Shown here in pieces: positions 50,001 through 56,000 of a stretch of 64,000 bases of DNA. Positions within the stretch are counted from its first letter, which is position 1, and each line of letters opens with the position of its first letter. Origin of the DNA: Escherichia coli (GTDB taxonomy: Bacteria > Pseudomonadota > Gammaproteobacteria > Enterobacterales > Enterobacteriaceae). The stretch is from assembly GCF_009931435.1 (NCBI RefSeq), contig NZ_CP043414.1; one strand, written 5' to 3'. A program made the position numbers.

Positions 50001-53000
50001 AGCCGATAGGCGTAAAAGTGACCCTGAAAGATGAGAATGGCAACGGGGTTACCGGAAGAAAAGAACTTCTTAAACAGGCTGTTAAAGTAGACAACACGAA
50101 GACCGATGCTGTTAGTGCCTGGACGGAAGAAAGTGAGGGAGTTTACAAAGCAAACTATACGGCCCATCTCATTGGCGACAAATTAACGGCCCAGCTGACG
50201 ATGCCCGGCTGGCAAACCAAGCATTCGGATGCATTCAGTATTGCGGGTGATAAAGATACCGCCAAAATCGCAGCGATGCAGATCACCGCGAATAACGCAG
50301 TCGCCAGACGCGATCACAATACCGTCGCTGTGACGGTCAGGGACGTGCATCAAAATTTACTGCAGGGACAAAATGTTACCTTCACGGTCGTGAATGGTGC
50401 GGCGGTTTTTGCCGATCCAAATGGCGGTATTGTGACGACAGATAAAGACGGGATTGCCAGCGTTAACCTTGCCAGTGACCAGGCGGTAAACAGTCTTATC
50501 AAGGCCGAGATCAATGGCAGTAGTCAGTCTGTGGAAGTGAGCTTTATTACTGGCGATATCTCGCAGCTGACCTCCACCATCAAGACGGACGATGTGTCAT
50601 ACACCGCGGGTGGCAAGATAAAAGTGTCAGTTACCCTTATGGATGAGCAGAAAAACCTGGTGAAAGGGATGGCTTCGCTGCTGGTGGGTAGCGGTGTGGT
50701 CGAGGTGAGCGGTACAGATAAAAATGAAACGGGTAACTGGAGCGAAGAGTCTGATGGCGTTTACACCACCACCCGAACCGCGAAGATTGCTGGCAATAGC
50801 CATTACGCCACGCTGAAACTATCGACATGGAGTAGCGCGCAGCAATCCGATGCGTATGTCATCCGCGAAAGCGGAGCTGTGCTGGCTTATTCCTCTATCG
50901 TTACCGACAAAACGACCTATACCGCAGGCGGTGCGATTAAAGTTACGGTAACGCTCAAGGATAGCTATGAAAACCTGGTCGGGGGGCAACGAGACGCTAT
51001 CAGCCAGGCTATCCAGCTGCCAAATACAAAAGCGGAAAGCATTACCTGGAATGAAGATCAAAAAGGCATTTATACCGCAACGTATACCGCTTTACTTCCT
51101 GGCACCGGTTTAAAAGCACAGCTACAGATGTCCGGCTGGGCGAGCGCCCTGACTTCAAATGTTTACAGTATTAGTGGCGATGCCGCCAGCGCACAAATTG
51201 TCTCGATGCAAGTGACAACGGGTAACCCGGATGTGCTGGCGAATGGTAGCGATCAACATACGGTGAATGTTCGGGTGGAAGATCAGTTTGGCAATGTGCT
51301 GCCGGAGCAGACTGTCACCTTTACGGTGACGAAAGGGGCGGCTGTATTTGCCAATGCAAGGCAGAGCGCAGATATCAGGACGGATGCGCATGGCATGGCA
51401 GAGGTTGATCTGAGCAGTACCGTAGCGGATGCCAGCACTGTTGAGGCTAAGGTCAATCAAAGCAGCGATAGTAAAACGGTGAACTTTGTTGCTGATGTTA
51501 GTACGGCGCGTATTGCTGATCTGGGGGTAACGCAGGATAACGCGGTGGCAGACGGCGCGACAGAGAACATGCTGTGGGTGAAAGTCACCGACGCGTTCGG
51601 TAATGCGCTGGGCGGGCAGACGGTCAGCGTGTTGGCGGACAACGGCGCAACGGTCGCTCCGACGGTGATTACAGAGCCGGACGGCACGGTGGAGATCAGT
51701 GTCACCAGCCAGACGGCGGGCACCAGTGCCGTCACTGCAACCATCAACAGCAGCAGCCAGAGCCGGGATGTGACGTTTATCGCCGATGTCAGGACGATGA
51801 AGATAGCGGATCTGGTCGTTAGCCAGGATAACGCGGTGGCAGACGGCGCGACGGCGAACACGCTGCAGGTGAAGGTGACCGATGCGTTCGGGAATGCGCT
51901 GGGCGGACAGACGGTCAGCGTGACGGCAGGCAACGGCGCAACGGTTGCTCCGACGGTGATTACAGAGCCGGACGGCACGGTGGAGATCAGTGTCACCAGT
52001 CAGACGGCGGGAGCCAGTACTGTCACTGTCAGCATCAACAGCAGTACCGCGAGCCGGAACGTCACGTTTATCGCCGATGTCAGCACGGCGCAGATCGCGA
52101 GTCTGGAGGTGACGCAGGATAACTCAGTGGCTGACGGCGCAATGGCGAACACGCTGCGGGTGAAGGTCACCGATGCTAACGGGAATGTACTTGCCGGGCA
52201 GACGGTCAGCGTGACGGCAGGCAATGGCGCAACGGTCGCTCCGACTGTCATCACAGGGCAGGACGGCACGGTGGAGATCAGTGTCACCAGCCAGACGGCG
52301 GGCACCAGTACAGTCACCGCCAGCATCAACAGCAGCAGCCTGAGCCGGACCGTGACGTTTATCGCCGATGTCAGGACGGCGCAGATAGCGGATCTGGTAG
52401 TCACCCGGGATAACTCAGTGGCAGACGGTGCACGGCGAATACGCTGCGGGTGAAGGTCACCGATGCGTTCGGGAATGCACTTGCCGGGCAGACGGTCAGC
52501 GTGTTGGCAGGCAACGGCGCAACGACTGCTCCGACGGTCACCACGCAGCCGGATGGCACGTTGGAGATCAGTGTCACCAGCCAGACCGCCGGAACCAGTG
52601 TGATCACCGCCAGCGTCAACAACAGCAGCCAGAGCCGGAACGTGACGTTTATTGCGGATGTCAGGACGGCGCAGATCGCGAGTCTGGAGGTGACGCAGGA
52701 TAACGCCGTGGCTGACGGCGCAATGGCGAACACGCTGCGGGCGAGGGTGACCGATGCGTTCGGTAATACGCTTGCCGGACAGGCGGTCAGCGTGTTGGCG
52801 GATAACGGCGCAACGGTCGCTCCGACTGTCATCACAGGGCAGGACGGCACGGTGGAAATCAGTGTCACCAGCCAGACGGCGGGCAGCAGTGCGGTCACCG
52901 CCAGTATCAACAGCAGCAGTCAGAGCCGGGACGTGACGTTTATCGCGGATGTCAGGACGGCGAAGATCGCTGATCTGGTGGTCACCCGGGATAACTCAGT

Positions 53001-56000
53001 GTCTGACGGCGCAATGGCGAACACGCTGCAAGTGAAGGTTACCGATGCTAACGGTAATACGCTTGCCGGGCAGACGGTCAGCGTGACGGCAGGCAACGGC
53101 GCAACGGTCGCTCCGACTGTCATCACCGGGCAGGACGGGACGGTGGAAATCAGTGTCACCAGCCAGACGGCGGGCACCAGTGCGGTCACCGCCAGTATCA
53201 ACAGCAGTACCGCGAGCCGGAACGTCACGTTTATCGCCGATGTCAGCACGGCGCAGATCGCGAGTCTGGAGGTGACGCAGGATAACTCAGTGGCTGACGG
53301 CGCAATGGCGAACACGCTGCGGGTGAAGGTCACCGATGCTAACGGGAATGTACTTGCCGGGCAGACGGTCAGCGTGACGGCAGGCAATGGCGCAACGGTC
53401 GCTCCGACTGTCATCACAGGGCAGGACGGCACGGTGGAGATCAGTGTCACCAGCCAGACGGCGGGCACCAGTACAGTCACCGCCAGCATCAACAGCAGCA
53501 GCCTGAGCCGGACCGTGACGTTTATCGCCGATGTCAGGACGGCGCAGATAGCGGATCTGGTAGTCACCCGGGATAACTCAGTGGCAGACGGTGCAATGGC
53601 GAATATGCTGCGGGCGAGGGTCACCGATGCGTTCGGTAATGCGCTTGCCGGGCAGACGGTCAGCGTGTTGGCGGACAACGGCGCAACGACTGCCCCGACG
53701 GTAATCACAGAGCCGGACGGCACGGTGGAGATCAGTGTCACCAGCCAGACGGCGGGAGCCAGTACTGTCACTGCCAGCATCAACAGCAGCAGCCTGAGCC
53801 GGAACGTGACGTTTGTCGCGGATGTCAGGACGGCGAAGATCGCGGATCTGGTGGTCATTAAGGACGGCTCAGTGGCAGATGGCGCGATGGCGAATATGCT
53901 GCGGGCGAGGGTCACCGATGCGTTCGGTAATGCGCTTGCCGGGCAGACGGTCAGCGTGTTGGCGGACAACGGCGCAACGACTGCCCCGACGGTAATCACA
54001 GAGCCGGACGGCACGGTGGAGATCAGTGTCACCAGCCAGACGGCGGGAGCCAGTACTGTCACTGCCAGCATCAACAGCAGCAGCCTGAGCCGGAACGTGA
54101 CGTTTGTCGCGGATGTCAGGACGGCGCAGATCGCTGATCTGGTGGTCATTAAGGACGGCTCAGTGGCAGATGGCGCGATGGCGAACACGCTGCGGGTGAA
54201 AGTCACCGACGCGTTCGGCAATGCGCTGGCCGGACAGACGGTCAGCGTCTCAGCGGACAACGGGGCAGCGGTTGCCGCGACGGTTATCACCGGGCCGGAC
54301 GGCACCGTGGAAATCTCCGTCACCAGCCAGACGGCGGGCATCAGTACAGTTACCGCAACCATCAACAACAGCACTCTGAGCCAGAACGTGACGTTTATTG
54401 CTGATGTCAGCACGGCGAAGATCGCGGATCTGGTGGTCATTAAGGACGGCTCAGTGGCAGATGGTGCGATGGCGAACACGCTGCGGGTGAAAGTCACCGA
54501 CGCGTTCGGCAATGCACTGGCCGGACAGACGGTCAGCGTCTCAGCGGACAACGGGGCAGCGGTTGCCGCGACGGTTATCACAGAGTCGGACGGCGCGGCG
54601 ATAATCTCCGTCACCAGCCAGACCGCCGGAGCCAGTACGGTCACTGCCAGCATCAGCAACAGCACTCTGAACCAGAACGTGACGTTTATTGCTGATGTCA
54701 GCACGGCGAAGATCGCGGATCTGGTGGTCATTAAGGACGGCTCAGTGGCAGATGGTGCGATGGCGAACACGCTGCGGATGAAAGTCACCGACGCGTTCGG
54801 CAATGCGCTGGCCGGACAGACGGTCAGCGTCTCAGCGGACAACGGGGCAGCGGTTGCCGCGACGGTTATCACCGGGCCGGACGGCACCGTGGAAATCTCC
54901 GTCACCAGCCAGACGGCGGGCATCAGTACAGTTACCGCAACCATCAACAACAGCACTCTGAGCCAGAACGTGACGTTTATTGCTGATGTCAGCACGGCGA
55001 AGATCGCGGATCTGGTGGTCATCAAGGACGGCTCAGTGGCAGATGGTGCGATGGCGAACACGCTGCGGGTGAAAGTCACCGACGCGTTCGGCAATGCACT
55101 GGCCGGACAGACGGTCAGCGTCTCAGCGGACAACGGGGCAGCGGTTGCCGCGACGGTTATCAGCGGGCCGGACGGCACCGTGGAAATCTCCGTCACCAGC
55201 CAGACTGCGGGCATCAGTGCCGTTGCCGCCAGCATCAACAACAGCAGTCTGAGTCAGAATGTGACATTTATCCCGGATGTCAGCACCGCGAAGATCGCGG
55301 ATCTGGTGGTTATTAAGGACGGCTCAGTGGCTGACGGCGCAATGGCGAACACGCTGCGGGTGAAGGTCACCGATGCATTCGGTAATACGCTTGCCGGGCA
55401 GACAGTCAGCGTGTTGGCGGACAACGGTGCAACGGTTGCCCCGACGGTCACCACGCAGCCGGACGGCACGGTGGAGATCAGTGTCACCAGCCAGACGGCG
55501 GGCACCAGTGCGGTCACCGCCAGCATCAACAGCAGCAGCCTGAGCCAGAACGTCACCTTTGTACCGGGTGATGCATCGCAGCTCACGTCAACCGTTGAAA
55601 CAAATAAGTCGAACTATACGGTTGGAGAGACAATCACCATCACGGTAACGCTCCGGGATGCGTTCGATAATCTGGTAACCGGTGCAGCTTCACAGTTAGC
55701 CGCTAATGGTGTGCTTACGGTGGCTGGCACCGACCCGTCAGAAACGGGAAGCTGGATTGAATCAGGTGGCGTGTATACCACAACCCGTATGGCGACGATT
55801 GCCAGTACCAATCAGCACGCCAACCTGCAATTGCAGACGTGGAGTGATGGTGTAACGTCAGATCGCTATGACATACAGTCCGGTTCTCCGGCGCAAGCCA
55901 CATCAACTATCGCTACGGATAAAAACGCCTACACCGCTGGCGACACTATAACCGTCGCCGTGACGCTGAAAGACGCGCACGGTAACCTGGTTGAAGGGGG

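Follow-up and report, generated by a model that had tools for sequence, protein, structure and literature searches.

Tandem Big_1 domains in the stalk of the Escherichia coli adhesin IatC: copy number among strains and a one-base deletion in one repeat unit

The iatC gene and its repeat array

The present study analyzes a 64,000-nucleotide stretch of Escherichia coli DNA (contig NZ_CP043414.1, assembly GCF_009931435.1), hereafter the window, which carries iatC, the gene for an inverse autotransporter adhesin also known as air or eaeX, and inside that gene a long array of tandem repeats. Taken together as a single explanation, it is highly probable that the repeats form the middle part, or stalk, of IatC/Air/EaeX, a type Ve (inverse autotransporter) adhesin, as a run of 14 tandem immunoglobulin-like (Ig-like) domains of the Big_1 family. 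The stalk would be placed between six divergent Ig-like domains near the outer-membrane beta-barrel and an invasin-like D4-D5 (lectin-like) tip. Features and their coordinates are collected in the table below.

Identification of the gene is based on several matches. The first of its two open reading frames (ORFs), ORF1, scored 2615.5 bits against NCBIfam NF040978, the IatC N-terminal equivalog with a cutoff of 2400, and covered the model from end to end (positions 1-1065 of 1065), while the N-terminus had 96-99.7% DNA identity to RefSeq iatC. Membership in the YrIlm family was considered and rejected, the score against NCBIfam NF040981 being 414.7 bits and thus below the cutoff of 750. Each 291-bp unit, which is 97 amino acids (aa), matched one Big_1 domain in Pfam, and a partial, weak Pfam match (aa 81-98, E = 0.6) points to a possible LysM before the barrel. 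The repeat unit aligned to D1-D2 of Yersinia pseudotuberculosis invasin (PDB 1CWV) with E = 1.2e-20, and the last 190 residues, forming the C-terminal cap, aligned to residues 295-481 of the same structure (E = 1.8e-21), the integrin-binding superdomain D4-D5. Invasin has four Ig-like domains without a homogenised array, unlike IatC of the window. An earlier note on this DNA, made from the sequence alone, had placed the array in an adhesin beside eip genes, and this was borne out, with IatC as the adhesin and eilA and the eip genes as its neighbours.

Tandem Repeats Finder reported a single array at 51518-55560 with a period of 291, 13.9 copies, and 88% matches to the consensus, and cutting in codon register extended this to 14 units. 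The array, the 291-bp (97-aa) period, and the count of 14 given by the earlier note therefore stand except that unit 4 is 290 bp, bringing the total length to 4073 bp instead of 4074 bp. Array edges are sharp, the neighbouring Ig-like domains at 51227-51517 and 55591-55881 having only 36% and 30% protein identity, respectively, to the edge units. The units had been called near-identical, but DNA identity between pairs ranged from 77 to 100% with a mean of 83%, mean protein identity was 80%, and synonymous divergence (dS) was approximately 0.44. Similarly, several exact duplicates longer than 300 bp had been expected. The example pair does lie inside an exact duplicate of 399 bp, in which units 3 and 7 are identical to each other, but this is the sole exact duplicate in the array above 300 bp; the second-longest is 244 bp (54197-54440 = 54779-55022) and the third 240 bp (53596-53835 = 53887-54126). 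The shortened unit has consequences for the gene as a whole, since iatC is 9677 bp here, 1 base below the intact 9678-bp allele of strain 2013C-4282, and instead of a single intact reading frame the deletion gives two ORFs, which could be an assembly error.

The gene and the variation in its repeat number are already published and thus already known. It is the IatC of E. coli SMS-3-5, where the protein lies exposed on the cell surface and favours biofilm formation (Goh et al. 2019, PMC6714894), and, as far as citing papers describe it, the same gene as Air/EaeX of enteroaggregative E. coli (EAEC) 042 (Sheikh et al. 2006, cited in PMC7058095 and PMC4210603). In the literature on EaeX, a mutant of EAEC 042 showed reduced adherence, and the number of Big repeats was found to differ between strains while being conserved within sequence type (ST) 69 (Fox et al. 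2020). The window shares with the described IatC/Air/EaeX the gene itself, the nepI-iatC-eilA-eip locus, and the architecture of barrel, Big_1 repeats, and lectin-like cap, but its allele differs in coming from a seemingly divergent lineage, in having its own unit order, and in the 1-bp deletion. The array is accordingly an ordinary feature of little importance beyond housekeeping. By-products of the analysis are a clear unit count across complete genomes, two explicit chimeric junctions showing unit gain or loss together with evidence of stability within a clone, and a flag that iatC of this genome is a pseudogene or mis-assembled.

Table. Features of iatC and its neighbours in the window (positions count from the first nucleotide of the window)
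Feature	Position	Strand	Basis or content
iatC (= air / eaeX), inverse autotransporter adhesin gene	48041-57717	+	NCBIfam NF040978; RefSeq annotation at matching place
ORF1, 1470 aa	48041-52453	+	N-terminus, beta-barrel, six divergent Ig-like domains, 3.15 repeat units
Inverse autotransporter beta-barrel	48485-49309 (aa 149-423)	+	Pfam IAT_beta PF11924, E = 1.9e-108
Six divergent Ig-like (Big_1 / Invasin_D3) domains ahead of array	49649-51493 (aa 537-1151)	+	Pfam
Array, 14 tandem units (13 x 291 bp, one 290 bp)	51518-55590	+	Codon-register cutting; one 97-aa Big_1 domain each
399-bp exact duplicate, copy 1	52034-52432	+	End of unit 2, whole unit 3, first 42 bp of unit 4
1-bp deletion site	52432/52433	+	GGTGCA/CGGCG here vs GGTGCAATGGCG or GGCGCGACGGCG in other units
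ORF2, 1755 aa	52450-57717	+	Remaining array and C-terminal domains, other frame
Antisense ORF, 773 aa	52920-55241	-	By-product; translation repeats with unit period
399-bp exact duplicate, copy 2	53197-53595	+	End of unit 6, whole unit 7, first 42 bp of unit 8
Divergent Ig-like domains past array	55591-57114	+	Pfam
C-terminal cap resembling invasin D4-D5 (Ig-like + C-type-lectin-like)	57115-57684	+	PDB 1CWV, Pfam Invasin_D4
nepI, conserved upstream neighbour	46591-47838	+	ORF aligned with annotated relatives
eilA, HilA-family regulator	57769-59466	-	Position matches annotated eilA of relatives
eip genes	59669-62213	-	ORFs aligned with 2013C-4282 annotation
eip locus, IpaD/SipD-family tip protein	59669-61018	-
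eip locus, next ORF	61062-62213	-

Copy number among strains and exchange between units

Copy number was taken from flank coordinates and fetched loci, each array in 22 fetched complete E. coli genomes being bounded with the flanks of the window, as whole-gene megablast matches end inside the array and are unsuited to counting. Arrays ranged from 6 to 25 units, and intact arrays were exact multiples of 291 bp. The shortest were in UID2309220033 (6 units), KE55 (7), NY1601 (8), and IAI39 (10), followed by 2017-02-2CC (12) and RMDEC465 (13). The 14 units of the window were matched in number by 2013C-4282, TUM10828, and 2020CK-00188, and R32_14_1F had 15. Sixteen units occurred in EC6868, eco-241, EP91A, DG341-1, a laboratory capsule mutant, and JNE25-001, with longer arrays in 1428 (17), MEC2025-PR and DA33137 (20 each), and PCP07014 (25). 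A degraded array of 2.8 units was found in ETEC6334, also among the 22, and NZ_OZ547136 had 20 units by flank coordinates only, its locus not having been fetched. The claim that copy number differs in related isolates is thus well supported. Unit order was strongly mosaic, 186 units falling into 126 types when grouped at 97% identity, and genomes of equal copy number still differed in which unit occupied which position. On the other hand, copy number does not change as readily as had been proposed, because six of the seven genomes of one widespread clone, that of EC6868, kept 16 units with 0-2 single-nucleotide polymorphisms (SNPs) in the array, despite having come from humans, pig, chicken, and the laboratory on three continents, and ST69 is conserved as well (Fox et al. 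2020). Stalk length therefore varies between lineages and is stable within clones.

Two near-clonal pairs of genomes show the signature expected of in-register exchange, either unequal exchange or slippage. TUM10828 (14 units) and EC6868 (16 units) do not differ anywhere in 11.4 kb of flank and share 13 units unchanged, and unit 7 of TUM10828 is chimeric, equal to unit 7 of EC6868 up to column 190 and to unit 9 of EC6868 from column 159, consistent with an in-register difference of 582 bp and a crossover within a 32-bp identical stretch. R32_14_1F (15 units) and 2020CK-00188 (14) have 1 SNP in 10 kb of flank, are one unit apart, and likewise feature a chimeric unit, in which columns 61-88 contain the crossover. 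As 291 is divisible by three and parts of the units are exactly identical to one another, exchange between misaligned but in-register units would add or remove entire domains, keep the frame intact, and shuffle unit order as well. Possible routes include unequal crossing-over, gene conversion, and replication slippage; we infer the mechanism of exchange, as well as any effect of stalk length on function.

The earlier note had proposed RecA-dependent unequal recombination. An alternative explanation, possible if somewhat doubtful, is that copy number changes by RecA-independent replication slippage or template switching between adjacent units. In E. coli, when tandem repeats a few hundred bp long lie close together, much of the deletion between them is independent of RecA. 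Both observed events removed just one or two adjacent units, and the crossover intervals were short, 28 and 32 bp of identity between units approximately 89% identical overall, as slippage might produce; however, 28-32 bp is still no shorter than the minimum usually given for exchange by RecA, and the mosaic unit order and a conversion-like patch of 333-399 bp between units 1164 bp apart fit homologous recombination or gene conversion better.

Several points weigh against the reading of the array as a stalk whose units are gained and lost by in-register exchange. Goh et al. 2019 (PMC6714894) saw no evidence of variable tandem-repeat number in IatC, but nonetheless list IatC sizes of 2459-2965 aa, and the counts reported here, with those of Fox et al. 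2020, contradict them on repeat number. Collapse of repeats during assembly would give the same chimeric units, although long-read complete genomes should span a 4-kb array. Lastly, homologous exchange is normally precise, so that loss of 1 bp at a junction, as in unit 4, is unexpected if the frameshift is real.

Whole-unit polymorphism, one domain per unit, and chimeric junction units were all found, as in size-variable surface proteins with in-frame repeats. Recombination changes the number of in-frame repeats, each a few hundred bp long, in the alpha C protein of group B Streptococcus, and with it the size of the protein. This protein differs from IatC in fold, secretion route, and organism, and a link between repeat loss and immune escape is not known to hold for IatC. 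A closer likeness is YrIlm of Yersinia ruckeri (Wrobel et al. 2018), which, as described in PMC6868369, is likewise an inverse autotransporter with Ig-like tandem units of approximately 300 bp and a C-type lectin cap. According to the same description, its repeat number varies between strains, units are under-counted in short-read assemblies, and the units are identical in DNA and more than 20 in number, compared with the 77-100% identity seen here.

Protein databases were of no use for counting. A search with the N-terminus returned as best matches mostly partial proteins or proteins of 1959-1964 aa, and many of the latter look complete while having the length expected for a single-unit array. 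Short-read assemblies probably collapse the array to one unit, and virulence-gene typing by length or coverage would therefore be unreliable. Homologues in Escherichia albertii (66% identity in the N-terminal part) had lengths of 1660, 1763, 1866, and 1969 aa, and these steps of 103 aa suggest a second, different variable domain array in that species.

The one-base deletion in unit 4

The earlier note had overlooked the frameshift in unit 4. In a sliding comparison the period fell from 291 to 290 for one unit, at 52391-52680, and the alignment of units put its single gap there (GGTGC-ACGGCG). ORF1 terminates 7 codons past the deletion, ending ADGARRIRCG, and ORF2 has no signal peptide or barrel of its own, while all related genomes are 1 base longer over the same interval. 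Unit 4 is a perfect match to unit 8 up to column 42 and from column 43 is another unit type, one that occurs at unit 5 in 2013C-4282 and at unit 7 in RMDEC465; of its 10 differences from the closest relatives of that type, eight are in columns 8-41, left of the deletion. In this genome a junction between a unit-8-like unit and a "D"-type unit would have dropped one base, and the deletion would be predicted to split the gene into an anchored stump of 1470 aa and an unexportable remainder of 1755 aa. If the frameshift is real, this copy is a pseudogene and the reach of the adhesin is moot for this strain. Either the gene is a true pseudogene or the repeat is mis-assembled, the reality of the frameshift being something we only infer.

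There is slightly less than an even chance that the 399-bp duplicate and the 1-bp deletion are both artefacts of assembly or polishing, and that the true array is intact with possibly 15 units. This could have come about if reads from different units were mixed and the units designated G and D were fused into a hybrid during consensus building. Consistent with this, the deletion falls exactly at the end of the longest duplicate and exactly where one unit type gives way to another, a change that diagnostic columns 41 and 43 bound to a 1-nt interval. Relatives have a contiguous block of unit types F-C-G-D, and units 3-4 of the window resemble C-G-D minus 292 bp, which is one unit plus one base. 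Moreover, the hybrid is in no other genome, with no in-frame version of it in the 23 loci searched; exact search of metagenome contigs did not find the frameshift junction; and exact look-up found no record of the ORF1 protein, leaving the frameshift without independent confirmation. Such repeat arrays are known to be mis-assembled, as the many "complete" database IatC proteins with the length of one unit also suggest. Against an artefact, the rest of the window is clean, with only 5 gap openings in 40.5 kb compared with R32_14_1F, all of them intergenic, and exact internal repeats of 200-320 bp are present in other complete assemblies too. In addition, gene decay is common at this locus in relatives, iatC being disrupted in ETEC6334, eco-241, and PCP07014, and eilA or eip genes being frameshifted elsewhere.

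The forms of decay in these relatives were diverse. In ETEC6334 iatC is frameshifted and truncated, in eco-241 it is split in the barrel region, and in PCP07014 an IS26 element beside a TEM-1 gene cuts its 3' end, eilA also having been replaced. Frameshifts were present in the IpaD-family gene of RMDEC465 and in eilA of UID2309220033. Phase variation or programmed frameshifting at the deletion was considered and rejected, as reading of the sequence showed no homopolymer, short repeat, or slippery heptamer around 52420-52453, and a phase-variable contingency locus was likewise rejected, as the unit is a multiple of three and every intact array is in frame.

Composition, selection, and the surrounding locus

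The array has 62% GC, compared with 50-54% upstream and 36-48% downstream, and the contrast of repeats with flanks that the earlier note had described was readily confirmed. It is mainly synonymous, lying mostly in third codon positions: GC and third-position GC (GC3) were 0.53 and 0.53 in the barrel region, 0.51 and 0.53 in the Ig-like domains before the array, 0.62 and 0.77 in the array, 0.47 and 0.45 in the Ig-like domains after it, 0.39 and 0.29 in the C-terminal cap, and 0.35 and 0.30 in eilA. The mosaic origin suggested from this contrast, in which a GC-richer donor supplied the array and this came to lie between an N-terminus like that of the host and an AT-rich C-terminus, seems unlikely. 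In its favour, there are three compositional zones with abrupt edges (GC3 of 0.53, 0.77, and 0.45-0.29), and whichever strain or unit is taken, GC3 stays uniformly within 0.69-0.85, no gradient toward the array edges being seen. But a scan of the two-unit protein against one genome per species (100,044 species), which finds close relatives only, yielded no donor of the GC-rich unit, its matches being only a mis-binned Escherichia contig and one match at 30% identity, and the same plateau would be given by codon or amino-acid bias, Ala, Thr, Val, and Ser making up 56% of residues, or by GC-biased gene conversion in a recombining array.

Biased conversion would explain the composition as well as a mosaic origin would. 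The plateau of 0.77 in GC3 matches the extent of the recombining array exactly and could be a product of such conversion on the repeats, an explanation that we would hold as no better than an outside prospect; the absent edge gradient, which had been sought as a hint of it, is uninformative. If biased conversion is the cause, the gene would be a clean intragenic natural experiment for this process in bacteria, and the one-base loss at the junction of unit types would be another trace left by error-prone exchange among diverged repeats. The mis-binned contig, JAIJJM010000039.1 (10.7 kb), was assigned to a "Collinsella sp." metagenome-assembled genome and is 92.6% identical over 8.6 kb to the window at 54982-63569; it covers the 3' end of iatC, eilA, and the eip genes, and is Escherichia DNA in an actinobacterial assembly.

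ORFs of 110-773 aa on the minus strand overlap the array, and the earlier note was right to treat long stop-free antisense frames as artefacts. Stop codons are missing from one antisense frame throughout units 6-12 and in unit 14, which accounts for the ORF of 773 aa. Selection on the units was assessed from dN/dS, which was approximately 0.28 for the units of the window and likewise for a set of 174 distinct units. Diversifying selection was therefore rejected, there being no overall signal of it, and the Ig-like domains are under purifying selection overall. The proposal that changes in the array alter antigenicity finds no support in these values.

The gene is present in approximately 750 of 5426 complete E. 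coli genomes, annotated iatC or air (EaeX/Air), in the same context of nepI, iatC, eilA, an IpaD-family gene, a hypothetical gene, a YopB/SseC-family gene, a chaperone gene, and yicS. ORFs of the window line up with nepI, iatC, eilA, and the IpaD-family gene of annotated relatives, indicating a conserved chromosomal position. Control of air/eaeX by the eilA product has been reported (PMC7058095). The 5' part of eilA contains a small AT-rich tandem repeat at 59361-59411 with a period of 24, 2.2 copies, and 82% matches. On the other side of iatC, between yicN and nepI, the minus strand at 45760-46426 encodes a RelE/ParE-family toxin and, in an overlapping gene, a helix-turn-helix antitoxin, and the toxin gene is frameshifted in strains 1428 and IAI39. 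Core genes at 23000-47900 of the window (ilvBN, uhpABCT, adeD, and others) have only 98.5% identity to the nearest complete "E. coli" genomes (R32_14_1F, 2020CK-00188, and 2013C-4282) and approximately 94% to typical E. coli. The flanks of this iatC allele gave the same two values, 98.5% for the nearest genome and approximately 94% for typical E. coli, and from these identities the window appears to derive from a divergent Escherichia lineage, possibly a cryptic clade.

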